Shown in pieces: positions 17,546 through 61,400 of a stretch of 64,000 nucleotides of DNA (the stretch's first letter is position 1; each line of letters begins with the position of its first letter). This DNA comes from Bdellovibrionales bacterium (lineage in GTDB: Bacteria > Bdellovibrionota > UBA1018 > CAIMNF01), in NCBI GenBank assembly GCA_040380025.1, contig JBEIJY010000010.1:1-64000 (forward strand), in the 5' to 3' direction. The translations under genes were made by a program, and so were the position numbers. The notes below the pieces were generated by a model, which was not told the DNA's origin, did no database searches, and worked only from the letters and a program-made list of their open reading frames with translations.

Positions 17546-19678
17546 CTATTCTGATTTGGGCGGGTTCGGGCGCCACTGCTGGATCTCGTTCGAGGTTCCG
17601 GGCAGGCTGTGCGCATCCACATCGAGCGGCTTCAGGAGCGGGTAGCCCGGACGGAATTCGAGATCGGGGTTTCCGTGCGTCTGGGCGCCGAAGAACTTCC
17701 CGTCCTTGAAGAACAACACCTGCGTGTGAATCGGCGACTGGATCGTGAGCGCCTGGAATCCCGCCTTGTAGAAGGTCTCGGCGTAGGCCGGGTCGAGCAT
17801 CGATTGCCCCGAGTTGTACACGCCGTTCTGCCAGCCGGCGAGGTGCGAATCGCCGAGAACCGCGCTTCCCGCCGCGGCTTTTCGTTTGCCGGGGTTCAGG
17901 GGCTTTCCGTACACACCGCCGGTGTGGCCGTGCGCGATCAGCGCATCCGAGAAGTACACCTTGTCTTTCGGACCGAGCACATGCACATGATCCGGATAGC
18001 TCACGCCGATGTCATGCACGAGGTATTCCTTCAAAAAGTTCTTCCCCGCCGTGTGGTACGACTTCATTTTGTTGTAGGCCGCGACATTCAGCGCATCATC
18101 CGCATACCCCGTGGTTGCGAACTTCCGGGCAAGGCGGTCGTAGCAGTGATTCGAGTAATTCAAGAGCCAGTGCGGGGTGTAGCCGCGGGTTTCCTTCACC
18201 GCCCGAAGGAGGTCCTTCACCAGCTCCATTCCCTTGTGCAGGTGCAGGCGGATGTCGGACTCGAGCGGATCGCGCGCAAGTGCCTCTTTTGCCGCCTGAT
18301 CGGCCTCGGTCCAGCGGCTGGCCGCATCGAAATTGAAGGTGTCGTTCGAGGCGAATCCGAGCAGATCGACGGGCTTTCCGTCGGTGCGCTTCAGGCAGGT
18401 CTTCGGATCGATGAACTGCCGGTAGAGCGCCTCGTAGTAGCGCGGATCGTAGTTGGGCGAGTGGGAGTCTCCGAGGGTGATGAAGATCGGAAGATCATAC
18501 ACCGTGCCATCGTTCGCATAGAACTTGTTCAGATCGGCGAATCCCGGCGGAAGGATCCACTCTTCGTCGCCGAACCGGAATGCGCTCGTGCGATCGAGAT
18601 ACGGAATCGCCCGGATGTGGGGTTGCGATTCGAGGCCCAGGCGAAGCTCCTCGGCAAGACCGGTTGATTTTTCGACGAGCAGGATCTGGGTCGCGTGCTC
18701 GGCGTTCTGGATCGAGCTGATGCGCGAGCCGATCGCGGAGCTCGCAAGGTAGTGGCCCGATTCAGTGATCGACCCGGTGGTGAAGATCATCGAGGGGTTT
18801 CGTGAGTCAGCGGGTTTCGGGAGTGCGAGCGAATGCCCGTGGACGAGGATCATGGTTTTTCCGGGCGAGAGCTTTCGATCCATGCCGGTTTCGGGCTTCA
18901 GGGCGCGCGGGGGAAGGGCGACTTCGTTGATCGTGAAGGTGTTGTTCGAGTGGTCGCTCAGGTAAATCTGGAACGGGCTCACGAAGCGGTACTCGGCCGG
19001 CCGGTTCAGCGACTCGGGGAGGCCCGAGCCGATTCCGTATGCCGGTGCGATCACGACGGGAAGATTCGTGGCCGGGGCGAGGTTTTTTCGCAGATTCTCG
19101 ATCGCTTGCTCGATTCCGTTCGCGAGCGGCTGGCCCGAGATGTATCCGCCCACCAAGAAGGCCTGGCTCGACCGAAGCGCGGTTCTGAGTTGGGTTTGCA
19201 CCTCGGGGCTGAATTCGCGCGTATTCACATAGCGGGCGAAGAAGCGCGCGTATTCGGGGTCGCGGGCCGCGGCGTTCGCGAGGAAATCCTCTTCGAATCC
19301 CTTGAAGACCCCCCATTCTTTATGAAACAGCCCCGAGAAGAATTCCTGCTCGGCCGGCGGCAGGCGATCGGCACCGAGTGCGAGCCGGAACTCCTCGAAG
19401 CTCGGCGGATAGCGTTTGTTCGTTTTGACCCACTCGCGGTAATCCGAGTACAGGCGGTCTTGGATTTTCTTCGCTTCTTCGGGGGTGAGGAGCGAGAGGA
19501 TCGTCTTCGCATCCATGCCCTCGATTTGCGGGATTCTGCGATCGGCGAGAATGCTCTTCACGATCGCCTTTCTTGATCCCGCCGGCAGGTTCGGAGTCAG
19601 CAGATCATCGCATTCGTTCGCAAAGGTCGAGATCGCACAAAAAAACAAGGCCGCCAGCACCACCAGAATTCGTTTCAT
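17546..19678 (-). CDS. Secreted metallophosphoesterase-fold protein resembling phage T5 A1
   Basis: Signal peptide MKRILVVLAALFFCAISTFA; TTGSIT, GFADL, LGDSH, SNH, HGHTG, GDSH, GVYNSG in A1-family order; AAGGA SD before ATG 19678. Confidence 0.7.
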   Translation of the reverse strand: MKRILVVLAALFFCAISTFANECDDLLTPNLPAGSRKAIVKSILADRRIPQIEGMDAKTILSLLTPEEAKKIQDRLYSDYREWVKTNKRYPPSFEEFRLALGADRLPPAEQEFFSGLFHKEWGVFKGFEEDFLANAAARDPEYARFFARYVNTREFSPEVQTQLRTALRSSQAFLVGGYISGQPLANGIEQAIENLRKNLAPATNLPVVIAPAYGIGSGLPESLNRPAEYRFVSPFQIYLSDHSNNTFTINEVALPPRALKPETGMDRKLSPGKTMILVHGHSLALPKPADSRNPSMIFTTGSITESGHYLASSAIGSRISSIQNAEHATQILLVEKSTGLAEELRLGLESQPHIRAIPYLDRTSAFRFGDEEWILPPGFADLNKFYANDGTVYDLPIFITLGDSHSPNYDPRYYEALYRQFIDPKTCLKRTDGKPVDLLGFASNDTFNFDAASRWTEADQAAKEALARDPLESDIRLHLHKGMELVKDLLRAVKETRGYTPHWLLNYSNHCYDRLARKFATTGYADDALNVAAYNKMKSYHTAGKNFLKEYLVHDIGVSYPDHVHVLGPKDKVYFSDALIAHGHTGGVYGKPLNPGKRKAAAGSAVLGDSHLAGWQNGVYNSGQSMLDPAYAETFYKAGFQALTIQSPIHTQVLFFKDGKFFGAQTHGNPDLEFRPGYPLLKPLDVDAHSLPGTSNEIQQWRPNPPKSE

Positions 19679-19682
19679 TTCG

Positions 19683-21035
19683 CTATTCCTTCGAAAGCAG
19701 CGCCGAGCAGGGCGCCTCACCGTTCAAAACCGCTTTCACGGTTTTTTCTGACACATCAAATGTTTGCTTCAACGCTTCGACGGCAACGCCCTCGAGGTTC
19801 TTTTTGTTGATCCGCTCGATCATGGGTTTCAGGCCCAGAATGAAGTCCGAGCGGAACACCATCACACTCGCAAGCGTTTGTGTTCCCGCCGAGAGCGCCT
19901 GCGGATTCGCGGTCTGGGCCGGATGGAGGGCCTGATACTGGCTCAGGGGCGCGGTGTTCGCGAGAATGAGCTTCAGCGGGGGCGATCCTACGCCGCCGCG
20001 CCCGTCGGTCGAGCGGATTCCTCGGATTTTGCGCTCGAAAAGATCGGCGGCCGAGGCCACGAGCGAAGGAGTGTCCTCGAAGTAGGTGAGCACATTCGGG
20101 AGCGGAAACGCCCCGTTCGTGCGATCGATCCGGCGCGAGAGCACATAGTCGATGAGGTATTCGAGAATCACGGATTTTCGTTTTGCGCTCGGGGTTTCGG
20201 CCCGCAGGTATTGACTCACCGAGGCCTCATCGTGAGTCTGAAGCGAGGGGTTTGTGAGCGCGAACACGCGATCAAATGCCGAGCCCGGTGCAAGGTGTCC
20301 CGATTCGATCAGGTGGTCGGTTGCGATCGACCATTCGATTCCCGAGTTCCCGCCCATGGTGAGCGCCATGGTCATCACCGGAAAATTCGGGTCCGACGCG
20401 AGCTTGAAGACCGGAAACATCGGGCCGAAGTTGCCCGATGCGGCCATCGCCTTCACCGCATCGACGAGCGGAGTCGATTCGGGTTGGGTGCGGAACTGCT
20501 CGAAGCTCCGGACGGGGTCGAGGTAATAATCGCGCGGATTGAGCTCGATGCCATTCGAGAGCTTGATTTTTTCGTCCTGAAACGAGTTGCCCGGAGTGCG
20601 TACGTTGTGGGGCGATCCCGGATTCGCCGATTCGTAGTGGCCGAACAGATATTTGAGCGGCGTGCGATGATAGGCGCGCACCTTCGATTCGACGCCGCGT
20701 TCCCAGTCCGAGAGCGGGATATCGATGTAGCGGGGGGTCGATTGCCGCGAGGGATCGCTTAGGGGAGAGGTGTATTCGTTCCAAAGAAACACCCGGATCG
20801 GCCGGCTGCCTTCGCCCTGGATCGGGGTCACGTTGCCGTCGATGTCGAACACGAAGATTCGCAACGGGCCCTGATAGTTCACGAGAGTATTGACGAAGCC
20901 GGGCTCGAGGGGAGCCTCTTGCGCCTCTGCATTCGGGGTCCACACAAGGTGCAGGGAGCACGAGAGTGCGAGTCCCCACACGCAAAGCGCCCCTCTTGCG
21001 CGTACAGCAAAATCAAGTCCCTTCCAAACCCTCAT
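19683..21035 (-). CDS. Secreted HAD-superfamily-like protein (start ATG 21035)
   Basis: Signal-like N-terminus ending AEA-Q; motif I FDIDGN, motif IV-like FEDT; GAGGGG SD; 4-nt gap to next gene. Confidence 0.6.
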   Translation of the reverse strand: MRVWKGLDFAVRARGALCVWGLALSCSLHLVWTPNAEAQEAPLEPGFVNTLVNYQGPLRIFVFDIDGNVTPIQGEGSRPIRVFLWNEYTSPLSDPSRQSTPRYIDIPLSDWERGVESKVRAYHRTPLKYLFGHYESANPGSPHNVRTPGNSFQDEKIKLSNGIELNPRDYYLDPVRSFEQFRTQPESTPLVDAVKAMAASGNFGPMFPVFKLASDPNFPVMTMALTMGGNSGIEWSIATDHLIESGHLAPGSAFDRVFALTNPSLQTHDEASVSQYLRAETPSAKRKSVILEYLIDYVLSRRIDRTNGAFPLPNVLTYFEDTPSLVASAADLFERKIRGIRSTDGRGGVGSPPLKLILANTAPLSQYQALHPAQTANPQALSAGTQTLASVMVFRSDFILGLKPMIERINKKNLEGVAVEALKQTFDVSEKTVKAVLNGEAPCSALLSKE

Positions 21036-21248
21036 AGAAACCCCTCTACCCTTGGTAAGACCGTTGACGTGTTCTTTTGGTGTAGTGAAGGAACTTTGAT
21101 TCCTCAAGCGGGATGTTCGATCCTATCCGGATTCTGACATAGTGAATCAATCGATTTCATTTTGTGATTGCCCCGGTCTTCTCTGGCACAAACACTCCAG
21201 CACAATCGAATGGTGCGATTCGGGGGAGTTACGCTAGTCTTTGGAATC

Positions 21249-22916
21249 ATGATCAAACACACCAAGCTTCACGCTCCTCATGGAAATCAGTTGACCTGTC
21301 GCGGGTGGGTTCAAGAAGCCGCCCTTCGCATGCTTTTGAACAATCTCGACCCCGCAGTGGCCGAGAACCCCGATGAGCTGGTCGTATACGGTGGAATCGG
21401 CAAGGCCGCGCGGAACTGGGAGTCCTTCGATGCGATCGTCTCGACTCTGAAGACGCTCGAGGACGACGAGACTCTGCTCATTCAAAGCGGAAAGCCCGTT
21501 GCCGTGTTCAAGTCCCATCCCGATGCGCCCCGGGTGCTTCTTTCGAATTCGATGCTCGTGCCGAAGTGGGCGACGTGGGAGCATTTTCGCGAGCTCGATC
21601 GCGCCGGACTCATGATGTACGGGCAGATGACCGCGGGGTCCTGGATTTACATCGGCACGCAAGGAATCATCCAAGGCACCTACGAGACCTTTGCCGAAGC
21701 GGGACGCCAACACTTCGGGGGCGACCTCTCGGGGCGGGTGGTGGTGACTGCGGGGCTCGGTGGAATGGGTGGCGCCCAACCGCTTGCGGCTTCGATCGCG
21801 GGAGCGGTGTCGCTGAATATCGAGGTCGATCCCGTACGCGCAAAACGCAGAATCGAGACGCGCTACCTCGACGAGCTGTATGAGAATCTTGAGGACGCGC
21901 TTCGCGCGGTCGAATCTGCAAAACACGCAAAAAATCCCCGCTCCATCGGCGTCATCGGGAACGCCGTCGACATTTTGCAAGCGCTCCTCGATCGTGGCTT
22001 CCAGCCCGATCTCATGACCGATCAAACTAGCGCGCATGACGAGCTGAACGGCTATGTCCCGCATGGGCTTTCGGTCGCCGAAGCCGAGAAGCTCCGGCAG
22101 AGCGATCCCGAACGCTATAAGGCGCTCTCGGTGGCGAGCATGGGCCGGCATGTGCAACTCATGCTTGAGTTTCAAAAGCGCGGAACCATCGTGTTTGATT
22201 ACGGCAACAACATCCGCGCCCAGGCCGTGAAGGCCGGGGTCGATCATGCCTTTGATTTTCCGGGCTTTGTTCCGGCCTACATCCGTCCGCAATTTTGCGA
22301 CGGACGCGGGCCCTTCCGGTGGGTGGCGCTCTCGGGCGATCCGGCCGACATCGTCGTGACCGATCAGGCGTTGAAGGAGCTCTTTCCCGCCCACGAAAGC
22401 CTGCATCGCTGGCTCGATGTCGCGGGCGAGCGAATCGCCTTTCAGGGGCTTCCCGCGCGGATCTGCTGGCTCGGGTTCGGCGAGCGCGTGAAGGCCGGGC
22501 TTTTGTTCAATGAGCTCGTGCGCACCAAAAAAGTCAAAGCACCGATCGTGATCGGACGCGATCATCTCGACTGCGGCTCGGTCGCATCGCCGAACCGCGA
22601 GACCGAAGCGATGAAAGACGGCTCGGATGCCGTCGCGGACTGGCCCATTTTGAATGCGCTCATCAATTCGGTGAATGGCGCTTCGTGGGTCAGCGTGCAT
22701 CACGGAGGCGGCGTCGGAATGGGCTACTCGATTCATTCGGGAATGGTGATCGTCGCCGACGGAACTCCCGAGGCCGCGCGGCGCCTCGAGCGCGTGCTGA
22801 CGAGCGATCCCGGCATGGGAGTCGTCCGTCATGCCGATGCGGGCTACGAGAGTGCGATCGCAAACGCAAAGAGCAAGCTCCCGGAATTCGGCGCACGCAT
22901 GCCGATGGTCCGGTAA
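21249..22916 (+). CDS. hutU: Urocanate hydratase
   Basis: [49 protein letters not shown]. Confidence 0.98.
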
Positions 22917-22924
22917 GGGGACGT

Positions 22925-24133
22925 ATGGCGAAGTCTTCTGTGCAGGCATTCATTCATGCCTCGGCCGTTTATACCGGCGAGGCGATCGTCGAAAAAGAAG
23001 GCCGGATGCTCGGGCCCAGCGATGTGTCGGCCATCGCGGACGGCGCGATCGTGTTCGATCAAAAAAAAATCCTTTGGGTCGGAGCGACCCGCGATCTTCC
23101 GGCGCGTTTTCGCGCGGTTCCGAAGACCGACCTGAAAAACCGAAAAGCCGTGATGCCGGGGCTCATCGACTCGCACACCCATTTGGTGTTTGCGGGCTCG
23201 CGTGCCCATGAGTTCGCACGCCGCTGTGCGGGAGCGAGTTATCAAGAAATCGCGGCCGAGGGCGGGGGGATCCTCTCGACCGTGCGGGCAACCCGCGAGG
23301 CGTCTCGGGCACAGTTGTTTCAGGCGGCCCTGAAGCGCGCCCTCATTGCGTATCGCTTCGGAGTCCGAACCATCGAGTGCAAGTCGGGCTACGGGCTCGA
23401 TCACGAGACGGAGCTCAAGTGCTTGAAGGTGGTACAGGACCTGAAGAAAGCCCTGCCGCAGATGACTTTTGTTTCGACCTACCTCGGGGCCCACGCGATT
23501 CCTCCCGAAAAGAAGAAATCAGCGTATCTCGACGAGATGATCCATAAGACCCTTCCCGAGGTACGAAAACAAGGACTCGCGGAGTTCTGCGATGTGTTCA
23601 TCGATGAGGGCTATTACACGGCAAAAGAGGGCGAGCGGATTCTGCGGGCCGCACGAAAGCTCGGCTTCGGCTTGAAGCTCCATGCCGACGAGCTGGGCGA
23701 TACGGGAAGCACCCGTCTTGCGGCAAAGCTCGAGGCCCATTCGGCCGATCATTTGCTTCGGGTCTCGGAGGCCGGAATCCGTGCAATTGCGAAATCAGAC
23801 ACGGTGGCGACGATGTTGCCGGGGACCGCGTTCTCGCTCAAGACCGGCTATGCGCCGGCGCGGGCGCTTCTTGATCGCGGTGCGCGGGTTGCGATCGCAA
23901 CCGACTTCAATCCGGGCTCGTGCTATTCGTTGAATCTTCCGCTCATGATGCATTTTTCGGCGATCGGGCTCGGGATGAATCTCGCCGAGATTTTCGCGGG
24001 CGTGACCTTCTCGGCGGCCGCGAGTCTCGGGCTTCAACACAAAAAAGGCGCGCTTTTGCCCGGGTTCGATTCTGATTTCGTGGTGCTCCCGTACGGAGAG
24101 TTCGAAGAGATGGTTTACAGGATGGGGTGGTAG
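22925..24133 (+). CDS. hutI: Imidazolonepropionase
   Basis: PGLIDSHTH, GGGILSTV, KSGYGL, LHADEL, ATDFNPGS; follows hutU. Confidence 0.95.
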   Translation: MAKSSVQAFIHASAVYTGEAIVEKEGRMLGPSDVSAIADGAIVFDQKKILWVGATRDLPARFRAVPKTDLKNRKAVMPGLIDSHTHLVFAGSRAHEFARRCAGASYQEIAAEGGGILSTVRATREASRAQLFQAALKRALIAYRFGVRTIECKSGYGLDHETELKCLKVVQDLKKALPQMTFVSTYLGAHAIPPEKKKSAYLDEMIHKTLPEVRKQGLAEFCDVFIDEGYYTAKEGERILRAARKLGFGLKLHADELGDTGSTRLAAKLEAHSADHLLRVSEAGIRAIAKSDTVATMLPGTAFSLKTGYAPARALLDRGARVAIATDFNPGSCYSLNLPLMMHFSAIGLGMNLAEIFAGVTFSAAASLGLQHKKGALLPGFDSDFVVLPYGEFEEMVYRMGW

Positions 24134-27453: not shown

Positions 27454-30291
27454 TCAGAAACGAATCAGGAACGGCACCGACATCAACTTACAGACGGTGT
27501 TCCAATCCTCAGACTTTTTCAGGTTCTCTGACCCTGGGCCATGGAAGTAGGGAGTGAAAACATTGTCGCACACCACCGACCACAGCAAAAACTTACCCAT
27601 GAAGGCCGGGATTGCTCCGGGTTTGTTCCAAAATGTTCTGATGTGGCTCTGAAAACTAGCGGAACCTATCGGAAAGTCTCCGATCGAGAGAGTCCGAATG
27701 GATTGCTCTGCTTTCACAAATGCCTCGGACGAGGGAAGACTCGCATTTTTGAGCGGACTGATCAGGAGTTCCGCTTCGCGGCTACCGATCTGCCCGGCTC
27801 GAGAGAGGGCCTCGATCTCGGCTATGATCTGAGTTCTTCCCTCCTCCGGAATGGTTCTCAGGTACGAGTACTGCATGGTCAGGGAGCCACGCTCGATTTG
27901 TGCAGAGAAGTTTCCGGGTTGTGAGATGAATTCCTGAAACAGTCTTCGCACTGTAACTTTCGTTGTCGCATTCAGTAATACTTTCTCTTCGACTTCGGCT
28001 GCGGCTCGAAGGCAGAGCTCCAGAACCTCCGGCAAGGGCCGCGAGGACGGGGTGCGCAGAGCAATTGGGCCGATTTCCGCGTATTTTTGTTTAAAAATAT
28101 CGAGGATGATTTCTTGTTCATTTACCGGAAACGAACTCACTCTCGCTTGTAGCGCCACCTCGAGAGACTGGATCATTTTTTCTTGATCCGAGAGATTTTG
28201 AGCGAAAATTACCGCGATTTTTTGTTGGTGCGCCGCACTCATGAAGTGGGCCGCATCGTCAATGGCAAGGCGGATTTGTCCGGTCGGTCCGTTCCAGATG
28301 CCCACGTATTGATTGGTTTTCGTGGCGACGTAATTCCGTTTTGTCCTGAGGTTCTGCAAAAGCGCATCGAATCCGCCTTGGGCAGTAGAAACTTGTCTGA
28401 TCGCAAGTCCGACATCCGCAAGAGTCGCGACTCCCGAGAGCACCGCATTCAAACGAAGATTTTTGAATTCCTGGAGCTGCCCCCGGGTGATTTCAAGAAG
28501 CTTCATGTTGTTTGCGCCGATCGCCGCTTCTTGAAACAGGTCTGCTTTTTCGCGCGCCTCATCCGCGCGAAGCCAGAAGTAGTGCGTACCGTAGGCGTTC
28601 ATGGCGATGTTCGTTGTCCATAATCCGCCGGCAACGAGAGGTGCCGCCTCGCCCCCGGTTGCGATCACCAGAGCCGTTCCCGCGACCGCTTGGCCCCAGA
28701 ATACGACATCGTCCCATGCTTTTTGTTTTTCGTTCCGGAGGTTCAGATTTTTCAGGGCTGTACACAGATCCGTCTGATTCTGTTTTGTTCCGAGCAGAAC
28801 CAAGGCTTCCCCTGCAGCGGTCGGGGCAAGTTCGGTCAGCTCTTCGATGCTTTGTTGAATGAGCCCATCATCCAAATATTCATGGGGGCGAAGGGCGGTT
28901 TGCAATTTTGTTGCATATTCATTCGTTTTTACGATCGCTTTTTGTGCGGCCGTGGTCAGAATCTGTTGATCGCTCGTTGAACTCGTAGCGGAACACTGAA
29001 GATGAGTGGCTGAAGGCATTCCGTCTTCTTGCTTTGCCATGGCATCGGTCATCATCAAAAGTCCGGCACCGCCCTGAAACACGAACTGGAGCAGGATGTT
29101 TTTTCGGTTTTGATTGAAAGTGACGAGAGCCTGGTCCCGTGCGGAGATGGACTGGATTGCGATCGGGCCCCCATTCGGACTTGTTCTTGATAAAACCGCG
29201 ATTTCTTCATCCACTGCGCGTTCAAGACGCTTTCCGAGCTCCGTATCTTTGAACTCCCGAAACTCATACCCGAGATCTTTAAGCGAGGAGCAGAGTCCCT
29301 CCACTGCGGCCCCGACCTTTCCGGGATCCCGACCCATTTTGCCCGTGCGCTGATCGTTCTGAATCAGGGCGAGGACCCGGTCTCTGATTTCCTGGCGCAT
29401 GCCCTCGCTGCAAGGTCTGCAGGTGTCCGAGATCGCTGTATCTACCAGGCTTTCGAGAAGGTTCTCGGCGGGATTCAGATTCAGGAACTGGTGCTCGAGG
29501 GTCACCCGGTTCCGGATCGCGGAGATCAGGGCGCGTTCGTAAATTTTGCCGCGAAACAGGATTTTTTTCGCTTTTGCTGTGATCTCATCAGCAGAAAGTT
29601 CTGGACGGGGTATCCCGGGTATGGAGGCCGCGACAAGTTGGTCTTGTCGAGGATGAAGAAAGTCGCTTCCGTCGAGCCTCGGAGTCTCGCTCTTCAACCA
29701 ACTGTTCTTCACTCGTTCGAGAGTAGAAGAGAAATAGGAATCTCTGGCGTAAAAAGGAAGATTTCCTTGTTGAAACAGGAAGCAACTCGAGTTCCAGAGG
29801 CCCTCATTGCAGTACGAATGCCGGTTGATCCCTGAAATCACCTGTCGATAGATTGGGCAGTCTTTGTTGTGAATGCACTCGCCCAGAAACGCTTCGATCG
29901 ACAAAGTCTCAAGAAGGGAACTGAACTCGGTGATGATCCGGCCGAGTTGCGGATCCTTTTGGGTTGCATCTGATTCGAGTTTGGACCCGAGAAGCCTGTT
30001 TTGCAGCTGTGTAAGAGCGCCTTCAGAATCCGGATCAATTCCGGCTTCTTTCATTATTTCTCTTTGAATGGTCTCGAGAGCTCTTTGTCCGGCCTGCATG
30101 CGAAGGTTCGGGTCAAGATCGGGGTCGCGGGCCAGGATGAGGCTTTCTTCGATGGGTTGCAGAGGGAGGGCGTTTTGGGCATGTGCGAGAGGACAAGCGA
30201 GCGTCGAAATGAGGATCAAAAAAATGCCAAGCATCGCGGGTATCCTTCTTTCCGAACGGGTCGATCGGAATGTGCCTCGGAGGTCTGCCAT
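27454..30291 (-). CDS. Large secreted hypothetical protein with central hydrophobic hairpin (start 30291 or 30234)
   Basis: Long ORF; signal peptide ending AHA-Q; VAGTALVIATGGEAAPLVAGG; TTGATT-17-TACAAT promoter at 30330-30302; visibly more AT-rich than flanks. Confidence 0.75.
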   Translation of the reverse strand: MADLRGTFRSTRSERRIPAMLGIFLILISTLACPLAHAQNALPLQPIEESLILARDPDLDPNLRMQAGQRALETIQREIMKEAGIDPDSEGALTQLQNRLLGSKLESDATQKDPQLGRIITEFSSLLETLSIEAFLGECIHNKDCPIYRQVISGINRHSYCNEGLWNSSCFLFQQGNLPFYARDSYFSSTLERVKNSWLKSETPRLDGSDFLHPRQDQLVAASIPGIPRPELSADEITAKAKKILFRGKIYERALISAIRNRVTLEHQFLNLNPAENLLESLVDTAISDTCRPCSEGMRQEIRDRVLALIQNDQRTGKMGRDPGKVGAAVEGLCSSLKDLGYEFREFKDTELGKRLERAVDEEIAVLSRTSPNGGPIAIQSISARDQALVTFNQNRKNILLQFVFQGGAGLLMMTDAMAKQEDGMPSATHLQCSATSSTSDQQILTTAAQKAIVKTNEYATKLQTALRPHEYLDDGLIQQSIEELTELAPTAAGEALVLLGTKQNQTDLCTALKNLNLRNEKQKAWDDVVFWGQAVAGTALVIATGGEAAPLVAGGLWTTNIAMNAYGTHYFWLRADEAREKADLFQEAAIGANNMKLLEITRGQLQEFKNLRLNAVLSGVATLADVGLAIRQVSTAQGGFDALLQNLRTKRNYVATKTNQYVGIWNGPTGQIRLAIDDAAHFMSAAHQQKIAVIFAQNLSDQEKMIQSLEVALQARVSSFPVNEQEIILDIFKQKYAEIGPIALRTPSSRPLPEVLELCLRAAAEVEEKVLLNATTKVTVRRLFQEFISQPGNFSAQIERGSLTMQYSYLRTIPEEGRTQIIAEIEALSRAGQIGSREAELLISPLKNASLPSSEAFVKAEQSIRTLSIGDFPIGSASFQSHIRTFWNKPGAIPAFMGKFLLWSVVCDNVFTPYFHGPGSENLKKSEDWNTVCKLMSVPFLIRF

Positions 30292-30403
30292 AACGCGGCG
30301 AATTGTAGCGCTGTGCACTAAAAAAATCAAGTAAAGATTCCAATGTAGAACGAAATAGTCTGTTTTTAGCTCGGGTTCTTTTTTGTTTGACCTCCCTTAT
30401 TGC

Positions 30404-32575: not shown

Positions 32576-32605
32576 TTGCTTGAGCGATGAAGCCGAATCT
32601 ATAGT
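32576..32605 (+). promoter_or_regulatory. Putative sigma70 promoter of the four-gene cassette
   Basis: TTGCTT-18-TATAGT. Confidence 0.4.
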
Positions 32606-32650
32606 GCCGCCAAAACATCATTTCTTTGGCCGCAACGAGGAGGGTTCCGT

Positions 32651-32854
32651 TTGAAGAAGGTGGAAGATCAGGTTTGGATCAGTGTCCCGCTTGCCGTGCT
32701 CATCTCGGCGATTTCAGCTCTGGAGGATCGCTCCGGTGTGAAACCGGATGCCGAACTCAATTCGACGACACTCGAATCCGGCGTGATTTACCACTCTTTG
32801 TTCGCGAATTCCTCTCCCTGCCTGAGTGGCGTGGACAGACGGTCCCGGACATGA
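32651..32854 (+). CDS. 67-aa small protein, candidate precursor/signal peptide
   Basis: GAGGAGG SD 7 nt before TTG; stop overlaps next ATG (ATGA 32851-32854); MKK + hydrophobic stretch. Confidence 0.7.
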   Translation: MKKVEDQVWISVPLAVLISAISALEDRSGVKPDAELNSTTLESGVIYHSLFANSSPCLSGVDRRSRT

Positions 32855-34323
32855 CGGTCTTCGGTCTTCCCGAAGAAATGCAAATCAAAGCCCGCGAAAA
32901 GACCGGGCTTTCCGATGCTGCTTCGGCCGACCTCGCGATCCGCGAAACTCTCCGGTTTCTTTATCTTTCCGCTCATGCAGACCGGCCGCTTTTTTTCACC
33001 GGCGATGAGACGGTCGACCGCGTCTGGCATTTTTTCATCACCGAGACCGAATTTTATGCAAACCTTTGTGATCGGATCCGACCCGGCTGTTTTGTCCACC
33101 ATCGGGGAATTCCCTACTCGGAGTACTGCGCGCAAAAGACCCCGAAGGAGCTCCTCGAAGAGCATTTCTCGTGGCTTGCTTCGTATGTCAGGAGCTTCGG
33201 CGAGATCGAGCCCGACGCGATTTTATTTCTTCCTCTCGCGCAAAACCTGATGGAGAGGCTCGGAAGCACTCTTCCGGAGTTGAATGCGCTCGCGAAGCGC
33301 TTGGTGCCCGGGTCGCAGAGCCATCCTGCACGGACGTTTTGTCTTGAGGAGGTTCTCAATGCTCTCCGGTTGCGGCAGGTCGAGCTCGATCAGGATTCGG
33401 TTCTGCTCTTCGCCACCGTTCGCGAGATGCTTCAGGGCGTGCGGGCTGCATCCGGGCGCGAAATCACAAACGATGAGCTGATCCAAGTGTTCTCGGTTTC
33501 GACTGCGCTCGGGTTCGCTCTCTGGCAGCACCTGGCCGCGATGGAGCGCATCGGGAATTCCTCGCGGTGGCGCGAGCAAAATCCCGCACGCTTCGCGGAG
33601 TTTGAAAAAGGACTCCGGACGATCGGCCTTGCCACCACCCATCTTGCCAAACCAGAGGGATCGCCCTTGCGGGGCGAGCGCATCGAGGGGGGCTACCGCG
33701 TGAACGGTGCCGTGCCCTGGTGTTCGGGATATGCCGCCTTTGATGAGGTGGTGATCGGCTTTGATGCGGGAGACTCCCTTGTTTTCGCATTGTCGCCCAT
33801 GCCCGACGGATCCGAGGCATTCGGGAGCTGGGAGGCATCGCCCATGAGGCTCGGAGCCTTGAATTCGACCCGGACCTTTTCGGCGAAGATCAAGGATTTG
33901 ATCGTCTCCGATCGCGATGTGATCTCGATCCGGAAAAAATCAGATCCGGTCCCCGGGACCGCTTCCCGGTATCGCATGCCCGAGATCGGAATGGCATCGG
34001 GTGCGATCGAAGAAATCCGTCGGATGATTCTTCGGGATCCGACCGGGGAGCCCGTCCGGATTGCGATGGATCGGCTCGAACAAAAAATCTCAAGACTTCT
34101 CGCGCTGATTCGCGAGGATTCAAGGCCGCTTTCGGATGCGGATCACCTACAAAAGGCGGATCTCATCCGGGATGCCACGCGGCTTCTTGTGATCGCTTCG
34201 GGGGGCGCCGCCCTTTTGCAGGGCAGTCCGGCCGCTAGACGCTCCCTGGAGGCTCTGCTTGTCGATGTGGTGATTCAGCCGGTCTCGGTACTAAAAAGAA
34301 AGATCGAGGCCTCCGGTTCATGA
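32851..34323 (+). CDS. Fusion of GRDP/DUF1399-like domain and acyl-CoA dehydrogenase-like flavoprotein
   Basis: N-term ETLRFLYL..VDRVWH..TET..Y..LC..FVHH; C-term ALGFALWQH, GGYRVNGAVPWCSG, ALNSTRT, ASGGAAL. Confidence 0.72.
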   Translation: MTVFGLPEEMQIKAREKTGLSDAASADLAIRETLRFLYLSAHADRPLFFTGDETVDRVWHFFITETEFYANLCDRIRPGCFVHHRGIPYSEYCAQKTPKELLEEHFSWLASYVRSFGEIEPDAILFLPLAQNLMERLGSTLPELNALAKRLVPGSQSHPARTFCLEEVLNALRLRQVELDQDSVLLFATVREMLQGVRAASGREITNDELIQVFSVSTALGFALWQHLAAMERIGNSSRWREQNPARFAEFEKGLRTIGLATTHLAKPEGSPLRGERIEGGYRVNGAVPWCSGYAAFDEVVIGFDAGDSLVFALSPMPDGSEAFGSWEASPMRLGALNSTRTFSAKIKDLIVSDRDVISIRKKSDPVPGTASRYRMPEIGMASGAIEEIRRMILRDPTGEPVRIAMDRLEQKISRLLALIREDSRPLSDADHLQKADLIRDATRLLVIASGGAALLQGSPAARRSLEALLVDVVIQPVSVLKRKIEASGS

Positions 34324-35675
34324 TCAGCCGCGGACGCTTCTGGGGGTGCATTGCCGGAATCCTTGTCTCTCTTTTTTGCGAAGCCCGCGAGCTTCGGTAC
34401 TGTGTCTCGGTTCCCGATCCCGGTTTGGATCCGTTTCGCGAGATCGTGGATGGTCAGCAGGTCGCGGCGTACTTCCTGATGACCAGGCCGTATTTGTCGC
34501 AAAATTCCGAGCCCGGGATTCTGTCGGCGTTTGGGGTGTCCCCCGACGGATCCGTATTTACGGGTCGTGTGAATCCGGCCTTGCGCTTCAATGACGGATC
34601 GCCGGTTTCCCCCCTTGAGGCCGCGTACGGAATCGTCCGCGGCCTTTCGGTCCGCCCCCTCGGCCGGAAGATCGCCATCGATGGCTCCCGATTCAAAGAC
34701 GGAATCCGTGTGATCGATGCACAGACCTTCGAGATTCATCTCCGTTCGAAAATCCGGAATCAGGTGGGAGTGCTTCGGGAGGCGCTTTCGAATGGTTCCT
34801 CGCACAATCGGATGTGGCCCGTGAAGCTCACGAACGGGCGCTATGATCCTGCGGCGCCGGTGATCGTGGCGCGGTTTCCGTATTCGTTCGATCGGGGCGA
34901 TGTCGTGTTTCGCGCGGGCGCAGAGAAAATCCGCATCGTCGGCCGCGACCGGTGCAAAGATGCCGAGTTCGGTCTGGTTCCCGATTTGTTCGAGACTTCC
35001 CGCGGGCGATATCACCGGGTCCGCTCGCGGGCCGCGCGGCAGATCAGCGTGCAAACCCATTCGATCCGCGTCGATCAGAACGCCCGGGCCGCACTGATCG
35101 GATGGATCCGGAGTGCTTTCGTGAATCTTCCCGATGAGCTCGCCACCGAGAGTGTCGGAAGTTTTTTTTTGGAAGGAGAGGGCGGGCACGATCCGGCGAG
35201 CCGCTGGGAGAACAGGTATGATGAGGCTGTTCTCGGGAGCCGCGAGTGGGTGCTCGCGGTCGAAAACCCCGCATTCGTCCAATTGATTGCTCGAAAAGCG
35301 GCGAAGGACGGCTTCCGGATCCGTTTTGTTCCTTTTGCCGGGAGCAATGCGGCCTATGATGCGCGGGTGATCGCATCGGCCATTCACGGAACACGCCATG
35401 TGATCCTCCAGGACCTTCTGGAGTGGAGCGAGAGCCGCACTCTTTTTGCGAAAACCCCGGCCACCGTGCGCGCGCTCGAGCGGATCTCCGCACTCTCGGC
35501 CTCGACGATTCCTCCGCCCCCGGCCGTATTCCACGAGTTCGAACGGATTTCGCGCCGGGAGTCGTCTTTCGCGCCGGTCGCGAGGCGCTTTGTTCAGGCG
35601 TATTCAAAGGTCGGAGCACCTTTGGTATTGAATCTCAACGAATTCGGAGAGCATCACTTTCATGAGCCCCGTTGA
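34320..35675 (+). CDS. Divergent family-5 (Opp/Dpp-like) solute-binding protein, no permease nearby
   Basis: Signal-like N-terminus; SPDGSVFT...LRFNDGSPVSP motif; ATGA overlap with upstream gene. Confidence 0.65.
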   Translation: MISRGRFWGCIAGILVSLFCEARELRYCVSVPDPGLDPFREIVDGQQVAAYFLMTRPYLSQNSEPGILSAFGVSPDGSVFTGRVNPALRFNDGSPVSPLEAAYGIVRGLSVRPLGRKIAIDGSRFKDGIRVIDAQTFEIHLRSKIRNQVGVLREALSNGSSHNRMWPVKLTNGRYDPAAPVIVARFPYSFDRGDVVFRAGAEKIRIVGRDRCKDAEFGLVPDLFETSRGRYHRVRSRAARQISVQTHSIRVDQNARAALIGWIRSAFVNLPDELATESVGSFFLEGEGGHDPASRWENRYDEAVLGSREWVLAVENPAFVQLIARKAAKDGFRIRFVPFAGSNAAYDARVIASAIHGTRHVILQDLLEWSESRTLFAKTPATVRALERISALSASTIPPPPAVFHEFERISRRESSFAPVARRFVQAYSKVGAPLVLNLNEFGEHHFHEPR

Positions 35676-37437
35676 AGAATCCCCGCCATTCCGACAAAAA
35701 AAGGAATTCGAGACAAGGACCTTCCTGTACCGCATCGGAGCCACGGTGGCCGTGTTCTTCGCTCTGACTCTAGTGATCGGCAATGTCATTGCCGGATACC
35801 ATCTCGAGAAACTGCAGGCAGACGAAACGGAGTTCCTGTTCCGGTCGATCGAATCGGGACCGCTCTCGTTTGCGCGACTCCAGTCGGTCGAGCTGGCACG
35901 GCAGGCACTCGAGCGGCTCATGGGAAGCGGGAGCGAACTTGCCCGCGGCGTGCGATCGGTCGAGATTCTCGGCGGAGAGGGCTTTCGGTACAGCTACGCA
36001 TCGTGGGTCGGCGGGGAGACGGCTTCGGCCCCGCCCGAATGCCTGCTTCGTACGGAGCGAAATTACACCTACCCGGATGCCGTTCATGCCTTTCGGGTCG
36101 GGATCGGAATTGACCGGTGCCGGTTCGTTCGTGGGTTCTCCGAGATGCGTTGGGTGTCGATTTTTCTCGTGCTTTTGCTTTCGTGCGTGATGCTCTCGGT
36201 CCTCATTTTCCTGTTCCGTCCGCTCTTTCGCTCGATCCGGATCGCCGAGAAGATTCTCCGCGAGGATGCTTCGGTTTCGGATCTGAAAAAAATCCCCTTT
36301 CTCCCCATTCAGCGACTGGCTTCGGGCGCGGTCCAGCAAATGAAGCGGGAGCGGGAGCTCGCGCAGGTGCGGGTCGCCCAACAGGTGGGGCATGACATTC
36401 GCTCGCCGCTTTCGGCGCTCGAGATGGTTTCGTACGAGTTACCGGGGATTCCCGAAGATAGGCGCATGATCGTGCGGAACGCGATCCGGAGAATCCGCGA
36501 CATTGCGAATCTTTTGTCGCATCGGTCACCGGACTGGAGTTCCCCGCCCGAGGAGCACGGAGCGAAGCCACTCGAAACCGTACTCGTGTTTCCGCTTCTC
36601 GATGAGCTCGTGTCCGAGAAACGCTTCGAGTTCCGCGAGAAACCGGGAATCGATGTCGAATTCGACCAGGATGACGCCTGTTACGGGCTCTCGATCCGGG
36701 TGGATCCGCTCGAATTCAAGCGCGCGGTCTCGAATCTGATCAACAACTCCGTCGAGGCCCTCGATTCAAAAGGGGGAGTCGTTCGGATCCGTGCCGGAAA
36801 AACCGATGCGGATGAGGTGTTCATCGAGGTTGCCGATACCGGGCATGGCATGTCTCCCGATTTGCTCTCGCGGATCGGGGTCCGCGGAATGACTTTCGGA
36901 AAACCGGGCGGTTCGGGCCTCGGGCTCGCGCACGCAAAAGAATTCGCCGCTCGCTCGGGAGGCCGGATCGCCATCGAATCCGAGCCCGGAGCCGGTACGG
37001 CAGTCAGGATTCTTCTGCCGCGCGCGGAGGCGCCGGAGTGGTTCGCCCGCGATCTTCGACTCGATGCGGGTGCAACGGTAATCGTGGTCGATGACGAGCA
37101 GACCGTGCATCAGGTTTGGAAGAATCGAATCGAAACCGGCGGAGGGAACGAACGGGGGATCTTGGTGCGGAGTTTTTTCTCTCCGGAAGCGGTTCGGGTA
37201 TTTTGCCGCGAGGAATTTCTTGATCTCGAAGACCCGGTATTCTTGGTCGATTACGAAATCAGCGGTCCCGGCGGGACCACGGGACTGGATTTGATTTCCG
37301 GACTCGGGATCGAATCCCGGTCCTGTCTGGTCACGAGCCATTACGCAGAGCCCGAAATCATCGCGGAATGCGTACGGCGCGGGGTCAGAATGATTCCAAA
37401 ATCCATGTCAGGATTCGTTCCGATCCGGATCGCCTGA
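35662..37437 (+). CDS. Hybrid sensor histidine kinase with C-terminal receiver
   Basis: Two TMs; H-box QVGHDIRSPL, N-box NLINNSVEA, DTGHGM, GSGLGL; receiver VVDDE..VDY..TSH..PK. Confidence 0.93.
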   Translation: MSPVEESPPFRQKKEFETRTFLYRIGATVAVFFALTLVIGNVIAGYHLEKLQADETEFLFRSIESGPLSFARLQSVELARQALERLMGSGSELARGVRSVEILGGEGFRYSYASWVGGETASAPPECLLRTERNYTYPDAVHAFRVGIGIDRCRFVRGFSEMRWVSIFLVLLLSCVMLSVLIFLFRPLFRSIRIAEKILREDASVSDLKKIPFLPIQRLASGAVQQMKRERELAQVRVAQQVGHDIRSPLSALEMVSYELPGIPEDRRMIVRNAIRRIRDIANLLSHRSPDWSSPPEEHGAKPLETVLVFPLLDELVSEKRFEFREKPGIDVEFDQDDACYGLSIRVDPLEFKRAVSNLINNSVEALDSKGGVVRIRAGKTDADEVFIEVADTGHGMSPDLLSRIGVRGMTFGKPGGSGLGLAHAKEFAARSGGRIAIESEPGAGTAVRILLPRAEAPEWFARDLRLDAGATVIVVDDEQTVHQVWKNRIETGGGNERGILVRSFFSPEAVRVFCREEFLDLEDPVFLVDYEISGPGGTTGLDLISGLGIESRSCLVTSHYAEPEIIAECVRRGVRMIPKSMSGFVPIRIA

Positions 37438-39700: not shown

Positions 39701-40861
39701 ATGACAAGATTTTGGGAGTCCCCCGGATGGGAGGAGTCAGATCCGCATTTGCACTCTTTGCGGAAGATGCCGTTCCGAAGATCCTTTCCTGATGTTCGAT
39801 TGGGAGCCGGCGTATTCGTGATCCGCGGTCCGAGGCAGATCGGGAAAACATCGTTCCTGAAGACGCTGCTTTCGGGGGCCACGCGGGCCGGAAAACGCTG
39901 TTTTTACCTGAGTTGCGAGGCGATCAGCACCCATGTCGAGTTGCTTGAGATTCTGAAATCACTTTCCGGATCCGAGTTTTTGTTTCTCGATGAGGTCTCC
40001 TTCGTGCCCGAGTGGTCGCGGGCGGTGAAGTCTTTGGTGGACGCCGGCTCGACCCAAGGGTTTTTCATCACCGGTTCGAATGCGAATGACTTGCGAAAAG
40101 GTCTCGATTTGATGCCCGGACGTTGGGGTGGGGGCGGGGAAATCAGGATTTTGCCGATGCTCTTCGATGAGTTTTCGGCGATGCGGGCGAGTGCGGGGTT
40201 CAGGAAGTTGGACCGGATCGAGGAGCTCGAGCTTTTCTTCAAGATTGGCGGATTTCCGCTCGCAGTCGCCGAAAGCGGCGATGACGGGCGAGTGCCGCAG
40301 AAATCAATGCGCTCCTATCTGCAGTGGATCCAAGGAGATTTGGTCAAGCTGGGAAAGATCGAGGTCTATGGCCGCGAATTGATGGGCCAGATCGCGCGCA
40401 CGCTCGGATCAAGCATGAGTTTGCAGACTCTTGCTTCGAAGACGCAGATGGGATCCCATCACACCGCGCAGGAATATGTGCAAATTCTCGAGGCTTGCTT
40501 TGCACTGCGAACGCTTTATTGCATCGATCCCGATGAGGAGAATTTCCGGTTCCGCAAAGAGAAGAAGTTCTATTTCACCGATCCCCTCATTTATCAGATC
40601 GCGATGGATTGGGCCGGTTTCAAGGTTCCCGCGAACTTTTGCGAAAAAATCGCAGAGCAGGTCGCCCACGAAACACTTGCCCGGGAGCACCGGCGATTCG
40701 GATACTTCAGCAACAAGAACGGGGAAGTCGACTTCCTGAAGCCGAAGGAGTGGGCGATCGAGGTGAAGTGGGCCGATGCGGCCACGAATCTTTCAAAAAC
40801 CTATTTGAATCTTGCAGTGCCTGAAAAAAAAGTCTGGATCAAACAGAACTATCTGAAATAG
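39701..40861 (+). CDS. AAA_14/DUF4143-family ATPase with C-terminal nuclease-like motif
   Basis: GPRQIGKT, FLDEV, ITGS, GGFP, KFYFTDP, EVDF..AIEVK. Confidence 0.88.
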   Translation: MTRFWESPGWEESDPHLHSLRKMPFRRSFPDVRLGAGVFVIRGPRQIGKTSFLKTLLSGATRAGKRCFYLSCEAISTHVELLEILKSLSGSEFLFLDEVSFVPEWSRAVKSLVDAGSTQGFFITGSNANDLRKGLDLMPGRWGGGGEIRILPMLFDEFSAMRASAGFRKLDRIEELELFFKIGGFPLAVAESGDDGRVPQKSMRSYLQWIQGDLVKLGKIEVYGRELMGQIARTLGSSMSLQTLASKTQMGSHHTAQEYVQILEACFALRTLYCIDPDEENFRFRKEKKFYFTDPLIYQIAMDWAGFKVPANFCEKIAEQVAHETLAREHRRFGYFSNKNGEVDFLKPKEWAIEVKWADAATNLSKTYLNLAVPEKKVWIKQNYLK

Positions 40862-58493: not shown

Positions 58494-61400
58494 GTGTCGG
58501 TGGAATCAAAAGGGGCGTTTCGGTTTTTTTCGTCGCAGGTTCTTGCGGCGATTCTGGTGTTCCAGTTCTCATTCTCGCCGCTCGCGCGGGCGCAGACGAT
58601 CCCGCCCCAGGATCCCCCGGGTGCGGATCTTTCGGGAACCGAGGGCTTCGAGGCGAACGATCCCGGTCTGTTCCATTCGACCGATCCGACCCAGCCTGCG
58701 AGCGAGGCCGAGGCGATCCGGGACGCCGAAGAACTCAAAAAAGTCATCGAGGGCACGAGCTCCCGTGTCCGGCTTCGGGTCGACACCTACGGGTTTTACG
58801 ACCTCCTTGCCGATGAATCCTTCGCCTCGAAGGGAATCACCGTTCCCTCGTCGCTTGTCGAGCATGTGCTTCTTCCCGATGGACGGTTCGAGCTCCGGTA
58901 TCGGAACGAAAAAGTCCTCGAATCCCGCTTTCGGGTCAGTTCCGTCGCGCGCTTCGGCGACTTCCTTGTGTTTGTCGAAGACGGCTCCTATCTGTCTTCG
59001 ATTCCTGAAGCCGACCGCGCAAAGGTCACCGTCGAGACCGGAATCCAGTATTTGTCGTTCATCGATCTCGGCCGCTACTCGGGAATGTTCGGCCAGACCC
59101 AGAGCACTCCGCCGGTATTCACCTTGCCGGTCGCTTCGGCCGGGAAAATCGCAGGTTTTGAGACTTCCCAACGGGACCTCGTCCTTCTTTCGGGCGCGGG
59201 TGTTCCGGTCCGGCTTCCCCGGCGGGTACTCGAAGCGTGGTCGCGGAACATCTACGGAGTCGCCATCGATGTGACCGCAAGGCTTCTCGAGCCCCGAACC
59301 TACTCCACGCTCGGAGGCGTGGTCGAAGAGCTCGAGCAGTACTTCAAAGAAGCCGCCGACCATGCGGCGATGAGCGATCTTCCGGCCGAGGTCCGGGCGA
59401 GAGAAGAAATCCGCGGCCGTTTGATCGAGAAGATCCGCCAGAACCGGCTTGACCCCTCGGAGCTCACGCAAGACGAGACCGTCCGGCAGGGGGTGCTTCA
59501 GACCACCAAGTCCATCGAGCTTCAGGGCCGCGTTGCGACCCGCTTGCGGCTGTTGTGGCAGAGACTCAGTTTTCCGGCTCCGATCGAATCGGCAAAGACC
59601 GTGAAGGAGTCGCTCGCTCTCATGGCCTACGGGCTCACAAAGAAGGGTTCGGAGCGAACGGGGGCGCTCAAGGAATCGGGGCTCCAGCTTTTGAACTCGC
59701 GGTTCGCAAAAATCGCGATCCGTCTTGGAATTCCGGTCGCATCGGCCGCCATGCTCGGGCACCTCTACCCCGCAGAGACCGCGCAGTTTTATTATCAGGC
59801 CCTTCAACAAGGGTCGACGGTCCTTCACAGCGCCTCGGGCTTTACCAGAAACCTGTTTGATCTCGGGCTCGACTCGGTCGTCGAGACCCTGAAAGGCCTC
59901 TCACCGCAGAATTTCTACCAAGCCTACCTCGCCGAAGGAAAAGCCTCGAAGTTCGCGGTGGGACTGGGTGCGATCTTCAGCACTGGTCTTGCGATCATTG
60001 CCACTCCGATTCTGGTGGTGAATTCGTGGATGCTTGCGAAGGATCTGAAGAAAAAGGGGAGTTTTAGCATTCAGGCCTTCATCGAGCGCCAGCAAGAACA
60101 GCTCGCCTCCCACCTGAAGGTCCAGTCCGAGACCCAAAAAAGGCTCTCGGAACGGTTCGGAGCCGAATCTTCGACCGAGTTCTCGGCCCAAGACACCGAC
60201 GAGGTGAAGCGGATCCTTGCCGAAATTTCAGAACGCGAGCGGGGCGCGCTTTCGAAGGCACTCGAACGCGCCAAGGCCTCGGCTTCGGAGTTTCAAAAGA
60301 ATTTTGTCGAGAAGGTGCGCTCCTGGCGGCTCTTTCGCAAAAAGACATACGACACTCCGGGCGGGGTGTTCGCGAGCTCCGATGCGAATCCGAATCATCT
60401 GACCGAAATTTCCGAACTGCCGGCCGGAGAGATCCTCGATGCCGATCTCATCGCGCAGGGACGGATCCGCTCGTTCGGTTCGGCGCTCCAGAGCTTTCTG
60501 ATCAGTTACCCGTCGATCACCGAGGGGTTCTCGTCCTTGGTGCGGGGATGGAACGGATTCACCATCTTTCGTCGCGTGTTCTGGAGTCCTTCTCTTTGGG
60601 TCATTCAGACGCTCTACCCGAACTTCTCGAATGTCGCGCTCGGGGACGGGGCTTCGCGGGAACTCACCATTCCCTCGCGCGCGAACGGGGGCTTGGATCC
60701 GACGCCTCTGGCAATGAAGCGCGTGTTCCAGTTCCTGACCTTCAGCTCGAATCTTGACCTGATCCGGGCGTGGGAAAAAAAGATCATCCCGGTCGAAAAG
60801 GCGATCCTCGCGCAGGCGATGGATCACGGCTTCGCCGCGCTTGCCGCGAAAATTCGGAGTGAGGGCGGGGACCTGAAGCCCCTGCTTCAGAACCTGACCT
60901 CGATGGGAGACCCGAAGTTCCAGAGTATCGCGTGGAAGCAAAAAGTGTTCTTCATGCGAACCGTCGAATCGGTCACGGCGCGGAGTCTGCAAAAGTTCTT
61001 GATGGAGCTTGCGGTCGATTCCGATCTTGCCGACCCCGAGGCGGGAGAACTCAAGATTCCGGAGCTGAAGCAAAAAACGCTGGGGCTTTTGGACCGGATT
61101 CAGATCGATCCCGAGACGGCAAAGCGCCTCGTGTCCGAGGTTGTGTCAGAAGGCCTTGCGCTCCGCGATGCCAACAAGAGCGCGAGTCGCTTCAATCCGG
61201 CCGTGATGATCGATCGTCTGCGGGTGAATTCGCTCGAGATCGTCGATCCCAAGAACTCGCCCTCCTTCAAGCGCATCCAGGTCGTGCTCGAGATGATGCA
61301 AAAGCCCGAGTCGATGCCGCGTGCGGTGCGGGCCACGCTTTCTTCGCTCGTCATGGCAAAACTGATCGGCGTCGGTGTGACCCTGATTGCGCTCTCGGGG

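Follow-up and report, generated by a model that had tools for sequence, protein, structure and literature searches.

A four-gene cassette in the genome of a Bdellovibrionales bacterium was analysed; it lies at positions 32,651–37,437 of the window, that is, the whole 64,000-nt stretch of contig JBEIJY010000010.1 (G000:C10:1-64000 of the 2.35-Mb host genome G000). As read from the sequence, four open reading frames (ORFs) on the same strand encode, in this order, a 67-aa precursor-like peptide, a two-domain enzyme, a solute-binding protein (SBP) and a membrane histidine kinase. The results indicated that the cassette is real, conserved and rare, and probably a variant of signalling by peptides that are made on ribosomes and modified after translation (RiPPs), with a predicted chemistry. 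The initial annotation of this DNA had described a make-and-sense module, in which an exported and oxidatively modified peptide is sensed by the SBP and the kinase; this interpretation was partly supported.

The peptide gene (32,651–32,854, + strand) starts with TTG, 7 nt after the Shine-Dalgarno sequence GAGGAGG (32,637–32,643, +). Its product consisted of a Trp9-led hydrophobic leader or signal-like segment (residues 7–24), the core F-A-N-S-S-P56-C57 and a 10-residue tail. Enzyme searches gave 12 other loci with upstream DNA (the duplicates L041, L044 and L046, equal to L004, L005 and L009, were counted once), and at all 13 loci, the window included, an ORF of 60–101 aa lay immediately 5' of the enzyme gene. 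Alignment of the 13 peptides showed that the Cys was present in all of them, the leader Trp in 12 and the Pro before the Cys in 12; the core consensus was approximately F-x-x-S-[S/T]-P-C, followed by a variable tail of 5–18 aa. The expectation of a conserved leader and a variable core thus held for the leader, but the core proved to be conserved. The joint pattern of leader and Pro-Cys, which was itself derived from the cassette peptides, was found in 11 of the 13 and in 5 of 12,876 comparable ORF segments of G000, one of which was the window ORF. The peptides of L014, L042, L043 and L045, read after the pattern was seen, all had the Trp leader and Pro-Cys. Conservation of the 67-aa ORF had been chosen beforehand as a test that could refute the proposal; the ORF is a real, conserved gene, beyond chance. 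The arrangement by which RiPP loci are recognized, a short precursor with a leader and a conserved core beside a tailoring gene, was present at 13/13 loci. A protein search with the peptide profile brought back nothing beyond sequences already in the alignment or a near copy; therefore, no independent members of the peptide family were gained.

The N-termini of the peptides were hydrophobic (best 12-residue Kyte-Doolittle values of 1.6–2.5), and AxA-like cleavage motifs were found in 11/13 cassette peptides. Long peptides of 98–101 aa were encoded at L004:9555-9851, L013:237-542, L042:2971-3267 and L043:4619-4915; these four had in common an insertion with the pattern DGS-x-x-(F/I)-x-x-(E/S)DG-x-x-I, which may be a small beta-hairpin domain separating leader from core.

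All four genes were found in order on one contig at nine loci (the window, L004, L005, L007, L008, L010, L014, L042 and L045). L006, L011, L013, L043 and L047 end at contig edges and agreed as far as they could be read; the kinase gene of the L043 genome opens another contig. Among 401 genomes of the phylum, the fused enzyme was present in seven, and a C-terminal piece of it stood at a contig end in G275. The full-length SBP subfamily (556–678 bits, next match 39 bits) and the kinase sensor domain were found in the same 8/401 genomes, the SBP gene always directly 3' of the enzyme gene. No extra copy of the SBP subfamily or the kinase sensor without the enzyme was detected among the 401 genomes, although such copies had been named in advance as evidence that would count against the proposal. 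Over the nine loci, the pairwise identities of enzyme, SBP and kinase co-varied (Spearman 0.73–0.80, permutation p 0.0005–0.0025), with medians of 30%, 34% and 24% for the three proteins. These results showed that the four genes are one coupled unit inherited together. The distribution was patchy, with different flanking genes at each locus; the cassette was not found in 16 genomes of the same genus, and an order-wide search of 116 genomes gave no new one.

The N-terminal domain of the enzyme (approximately aa 1–157; 32,851–33,321, +) belongs to PF27765 (UCP032817-like) according to a precomputed match on the window protein and four homologs, a match that carries no score against a cut-off because the local Pfam copy lacks the PF27765 model; the Atlas search gave the same family (0.92, 27/30 hits). 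The whole enzyme had no match in the local Pfam or NCBIfam copies, and no PF07173 (GRDP-like, DUF1399) match at E up to 0.1. The domain was tied to PF07173 through an intermediate protein scoring above the PF07173 cut-off (hhalign probability 97.8), and the motif DxxWH...Y...C...H was common to both. Residues E32, D56, W59, H60, Y69 and H84 were invariant in 37/37 rows of the fusion alignment and 35/35 rows of the domain alignment, and the Glu/Asp/His/His set among them constitutes a putative metal site. The N-domain was modelled with a predicted local distance difference test (pLDDT) value of 93 (full enzyme, 92.5). Foldseek gave no match to solved structures at E up to 0.001, and the best VIA-align Z was 3.4 among 48,161 chains, where the absence of a match is no proof of a new fold.

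Co-folding of the peptide with the enzyme, a check proposed in the initial annotation, supported leader binding. The predicted complex scored 0.61, compared with 0.00 for the best of three controls; the mark used for this score was reached by 116/157 solved and 2/215 mismatched pairs and is a rough guide with our own alignments. The runs had at least 41% of contacts in common, and the pLDDT of the partner was at least 42 (43–49). The confident interface was confined to peptide residues 7–24 on the helices of the N-domain, with Trp9 against residues 39, 42, 43, 107 and 111; helices 38–44, 99–115 and 137–153 form the predicted leader groove. The PF27765 domain is thus predicted to bind the peptide N-terminus as a leader.

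The C-terminal domain (approximately aa 161–490; 33,331–34,323, +) had the three-domain acyl-CoA dehydrogenase (ACAD) fold (Foldseek E 1.3e-10). Profile matches to solved structures included isovaleryl-CoA dehydrogenase (IVD, E 1e-15) and C2 monooxygenase (E 4e-7), at 10–17% identity; C2, an ACAD-fold flavin monooxygenase, was the best match of the fusion profile, and acyl-carrier-protein (ACP) dehydrogenases and PigA were among the Foldseek matches. The segments GLATTH and GxxPWxxG aligned with ACAD segments that we take to be the flavin site. In hidden Markov model alignments, without structural superposition, the column taken as the catalytic position of medium-chain acyl-CoA dehydrogenase (MCAD) held I, V, G, L, F or P (I475 in the window protein) and no Glu, and the presumed IVD-type region (370–373) was variable, with Glu not among its common residues. 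With both usual catalytic positions lacking Glu in these alignments, the domain does not appear to be a canonical acyl-CoA dehydrogenase; the ACAD label of the initial annotation is right for the fold, but not for that activity. Residues specific to the family were Q226, H227, T263, H264, E/D378 and Q476; Q226, T263, W290 and G380 were kept in 37/37 rows and E/D378 in 36/37. As for C2/HsaA/DszC-type features, no His, presumably the catalytic residue in those enzymes, was found in columns 474–476, and no flavin reductase recurred at the loci.

The third gene (34,320–35,675, +) encodes a 451-aa divergent family-5-like SBP with a signal-like N-terminus. It matched SBP_bac_5 (PF00496) at E=0.085 and 12.4 bits against a cut-off of 32.4 bits, and its relatives at 3e-6 to 5e-4 (19.7–27 bits), all under the curated cut-off; PF00496 was precomputed on 7/11 relatives. 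Profile matches were nearly all family-5 SBPs of the OppA/NikA type (best E 1.4e-4, N-terminal part only), with nickel-binding proteins among the weak ones. By remote homology, the protein is a family-5 member. The GRDP/ACAD and family-5 labels given earlier were therefore confirmed at a remote level, but the cut-offs of the SBP family and PF07173 were not reached. No transporter genes were found alongside the SBP gene.

The fourth gene (35,662–37,437, +) encodes a 591-aa membrane histidine kinase, as shown by domain scans and the alignment of nine kinases (HATPase_c, E=4e-20). Transmembrane segments at approximately 21–39 and 167–185 flank a periplasmic sensor of about 120 aa with invariant C127 and C153. 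The H-box was intact (H244), and the window copy had a C-terminal receiver (D477, D478, D530, T558, K580). The description as a hybrid kinase was correct for the window copy, but the receiver was present in 4/9 aligned kinases and missing in 5/9; therefore, the regulator that receives the phosphoryl group must be encoded elsewhere. The kinase core had four paralogs in G000 (33–44% identity), and the peptide, enzyme and SBP genes were single-copy. At G000:C7:8017-11191, a hybrid kinase paralog is encoded 3' of a methyltransferase-like gene; the sensor region of this kinase is of another, multi-membrane type.

The PF27765/GRDP-like family spans bacteria to plants. Among the 150 best matches of the enzyme in the 50%-identity representatives, 32 were full-length fusions; the others included ACAD halves and N-domains that stand alone, as well as fusions of the N-domain to class I S-adenosylmethionine (SAM) methyltransferases (8 clusters) or a cupin (1 cluster) (P0082, P0086, P0087, P0088, P0091, P0094, P0096, P0109 and P0104). 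At 18 of 23 loci examined (36 found), a short ORF whose last 16 residues included a Cys lay 5' of the stand-alone domain, with ORF starts chosen by hand and related loci not independent, compared with 50/177 control genes. At L077 and L080, Cys repeats were carried on the C-terminus of the domain protein itself. The L080 protein (L080:1165-2004, −), a GRDP-like domain with six tandem TALCIGENPDA repeats, looks like a self-contained enzyme-plus-core protein; the next gene resembles the TauD-like dioxygenase gene of L056.

Other rows with stand-alone GRDP-like genes were also observed. The row at L054:4573-9583 contains a peptide ending in KPTCF, a stand-alone GRDP-like gene, a major facilitator superfamily gene, an SBP_bac_5 gene above the cut-off and a histidine kinase gene; it is a second make-and-sense layout, and its genome (G295) also has the ACAD-fusion cassette. 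A second family (L048:4216-5478, L052:4399-5728, L055:4113-5399, L085, L088 and L093) combines a signal-type peptide of 60–100 aa, ending in T-C-G-x-G-S-H-G(-x-x-x-D-P-V), with a stand-alone GRDP-like gene, which a GNAT acetyltransferase gene usually accompanies. Lys-rich peptides of 28–45 aa precede stand-alone GRDP-like genes at L083, L086, L087, L089, L090, L091, L096, L098 and L030. Their leaders are of the type L/I-I-x-K/R-I/L and their ends CC, CxC or CxxC; the L096 row runs on into a cytochrome P450 gene.

The mechanism proposed for the cassette combines modification of the Cys under guidance by the leader with a second oxidation that depends on flavin, Sec export and sensing of the product by SBP and kinase as a self signal; we judge the chances for and against it to be about equal. 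In the cytoplasm, the Trp-led hydrophobic N-terminus of the peptide is predicted to dock in the groove of the PF27765 domain as a leader, and the domain would modify the core Cys through its Glu/Asp/His/His site. The fused ACAD-fold flavoprotein may perform a second oxidation at or beside Pro-Cys, for which oxygenation or an unusual desaturation would be more likely than classical acyl-CoA dehydrogenation. The peptide N-terminus would then act as a Sec signal, so that a dedicated exporter would not be needed, and the product would probably be trimmed. The transporter-less SBP may bind the product and present it to the kinase at that protein's cassette-specific sensor domain; the kinase would then signal to a regulator whose gene lies elsewhere, and the outcome would be a self or density signal. 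A broader proposal, which is tentative and which we think more doubtful than the mechanism itself, is that PF27765/GRDP-like proteins are leader-binding metalloenzymes acting on peptide cysteines, a new RiPP class, paired here with an ACAD-fold maturase that yields a Pro-Cys-derived signal read by a family-5 SBP and kinase: self-signalling in diderm Bdellovibrionota.

Several observations weigh against this mechanism. The AxA pattern was missing in the window peptide and in that of L010, and the N-region of the window peptide had a net charge of 0. The complex model gave no confident position for the Cys core, and the fold of the peptide was uncertain. Of the 8 positive genomes, 7 contributed to the SBP profile and 6 to the sensor profile, and just 4–11 candidates were scored in each genome; the co-varying identities are a sign of shared history, not of ligand-receptor fit. 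About 25 clusters of stand-alone ACAD halves were among the best 150 matches, and the ACAD half stood alone, without peptide, SBP and kinase, in L009 (=G114) and L012, which further restricts the ACAD label given earlier. These halves are encoded at L009:9959-10981, followed by an NAD(P)-binding protein gene, and at L012:4581-5213, where the gene runs up to the contig end. At the loci examined, no protease, exporter or response regulator recurred beside the cassette. The signal peptide of BufA1, a bufferin, is dispensable for its modification (PMC11626156). Family-5 SBPs take many non-peptide ligands, and the initial statement that they bind peptides has to be widened to sugars, nickel and opines (PMC8050422).

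Other explanations were weighed against the proposed mechanism. The Cys peptide could be a periplasmic metallophore, with the SBP and kinase sensing the metal-peptide in the cell's own periplasm and not a cell-cell signal, and the cassette would then be a metal-status sensor. In its favour, bufferins, which have a Sec signal and modified cysteines, bind periplasmic copper (PMC11626156), nickel binders occur among family-5 SBPs (PMC8050422) as they do among the weak profile matches here, and a TonB-dependent receptor gene precedes the window cassette. However, the cassette peptides have one conserved Cys and bufferins several, the TonB receptor was in no other cassette locus examined, and no MNIO/DUF692, metal exporter or extracytoplasmic function sigma factor genes were seen beside the cassette; we consider the metal sensor unlikely. 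Slightly less probable still is that the peptide, instead of being a substrate, has a structural or regulatory role in which its helix completes or gates the PF27765 domain, while the enzyme acts on a small metabolite that the SBP and kinase sense. Such a role would leave unexplained the invariant Cys about 35–70 residues from the docking helix, as well as the diverse Cys cores beside stand-alone domains and the six tandem Cys repeats of L080, although the N-terminal helix was the sole confident predicted contact and the ACAD half is able to stand alone.

The peptide could also be a scaffold: the two domains would convert the Cys or Pro-Cys of this carrier into an excised, pearlin-like small molecule that is the SBP ligand. 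An exported product of 40–75 aa seems large for an SBP pocket. Just about seven residues around Pro-Cys were conserved, the linker (60–101 aa overall) and the tail (5–18 aa) varied freely, and enzymes with the ACAD fold use carrier-bound substrates, the acyl-ACP dehydrogenases and PigA being among the Foldseek matches. We nevertheless regard the scaffold as improbable, more so than the gating role: the Cys is internal, the cassette has no recurring ligase or protease, and the signal-like N-termini suggest export of the peptide itself. A chance neighbourhood, with a spurious small ORF or with the enzyme and the SBP-kinase pair as unrelated units, is very improbable; in its favour, the four G000 paralogs of the kinase core have no SBP or enzyme relative adjoining, but the gene order and motifs were kept at about 30% protein identity amid different flanks, and the three profiles coincide in 8/401 genomes.

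The peptide and enzyme genes overlap by ATGA at 32,851–54, the enzyme and SBP genes by ATGA at 34,320–23, and the SBP and kinase genes share 14 nt (35,662–75). The four-gene layout, the Shine-Dalgarno sequence and the three overlaps were all as first annotated. The in-frame starts of the enzyme are just 32,626, 32,674 and 32,851, and the gene call in the protein collection is 490 aa; position 32,851 was therefore the best choice, and the mechanical ORF start at 32,626, already suspected of masking the true one, was dropped in its favour. In most homologs, the enzyme N-terminus is 10–40 residues longer than in the 490-aa version. A weak candidate sigma-70-like promoter, TTGCTT-N18-TATAGT (32,577–32,606, +; 8/12 consensus matches by script, below the threshold of the scan tool), falls inside the 126-nt gap 3' of the TonB-dependent receptor gene. 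Sigma-54 candidates with 8–10/11 matches were present in 5/13 upstream regions, counted without a control; no such motif was present in the intergenic DNA of the window, and a shared sigma-54 promoter was rejected as not general. The TonB receptor was dropped as a cassette part because of its absence from every other cassette locus examined. Among the 47 larger window ORFs scanned there was no ATP-binding cassette (ABC) permease or ATPase, as the initial annotation had stated, and no response regulator.

Three genomes of the same genus were inspected for an empty insertion site, and none was found. In these, glmU precedes uvrD; in G000, glmU sits on another contig, and the region has therefore been rearranged. 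An AAA_14 and DUF4143 ATPase gene (39,701–40,861, +) lies between uvrD and a rhodanese-like gene in the window; it is missing at that place in the three same-genus genomes, which keep uvrD-rhodanese-gatC. Large window ORFs without a Pfam match were located at 27,454–30,330 (−, 958 aa), 17,546–19,720 (−, 724 aa), 21,234–22,949 (−, 571 aa) and 58,494–62,246 (+, 1250 aa). The 958-aa ORF has a signal-like start and a third-position GC content of 0.58, compared with 0.74–0.79 in the receptor and uvrD genes.

A literature search did not find a description of the cassette, of PF27765 as a RiPP enzyme or of an ACAD-fold RiPP maturase; most subscription journals and the supplements of PMC12452194 and PMC11626156 were outside this search. 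Searching by accession for PF27765/PF07173 biochemistry gave papers on plants and fungi and a single plant-microbe review. The cassette supplies a candidate substrate-enzyme pair for this uncharacterised family, with a putative 67-aa substrate, a predicted docking segment and an invariant target Cys, and an answer on the chemistry of PF27765 would bear on many stand-alone copies and on the plant GRDP proteins. The ACAD fold may join the RiPP maturases. In addition, the cassette is a candidate case of signalling by a modified peptide among diderms, in a phylum that is largely predatory.

Comparison with known systems showed likeness in parts. Bufferins (BufA with the MNIO enzyme BufB and the DUF2063 protein BufC) also have a small Sec-type precursor with conserved Cys and no dedicated exporter (PMC11626156, PMC12452194), and they are a precedent for RiPP precursors with a Sec signal (PMC11626156). 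TIGR04222 and precursors with signal peptides are discussed as MNIO substrates in PMC12452194, Table S2 of which lists small Cys ORFs with signal peptides; in the main text of that article, the terms 'Bdellovibrio' and 'acyl-CoA dehydrogenase' are not present. Unlike bufferins, the cassette has a single Pro-Cys, a co-encoded SBP-kinase receptor and neither MNIO nor DUF2063; no DUF692 or DUF2063 was found among the cassette genes or the scanned window ORFs. Within the PF27765/PF07173 family, the domain is here distinguished by its ACAD fusion and its position 3' of a separate Pro-Cys peptide. The fold is shared with the ACAD superfamily (IVD, MCAD; C2/HsaA/DszC; PigA), but the cassette enzyme has E/D378 and Q476 instead of the catalytic Glu. 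The initial annotation had cited LuxP/LuxQ as precedent for an SBP-kinase receptor; such pairs exist, but the closer, family-5 precedent is CBP-ChiS of Vibrio, in which the periplasmic SBP_bac_5 protein CBP controls a membrane kinase (PMC8050422). CBP, however, binds chitin oligosaccharides and also serves transport, and no precursor peptide and tailoring enzyme are co-encoded. LuxP-LuxQ is likewise an SBP-kinase pair, but LuxP is of another SBP class, and it too lacks a co-encoded peptide and tailoring enzyme. In the Gram-positive quorum systems based on modified peptides, agr (AgrBDC) and ComQXP, the precursor, tailoring enzyme and histidine kinase are in one operon, and agr has a conserved Cys. 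The cassette differs from these systems in its diderm host, its unrelated enzyme and the absence of an adjacent response regulator, and a periplasmic SBP with its kinase would stand in for the kinases to which, in Gram-positive bacteria, the peptide binds directly.

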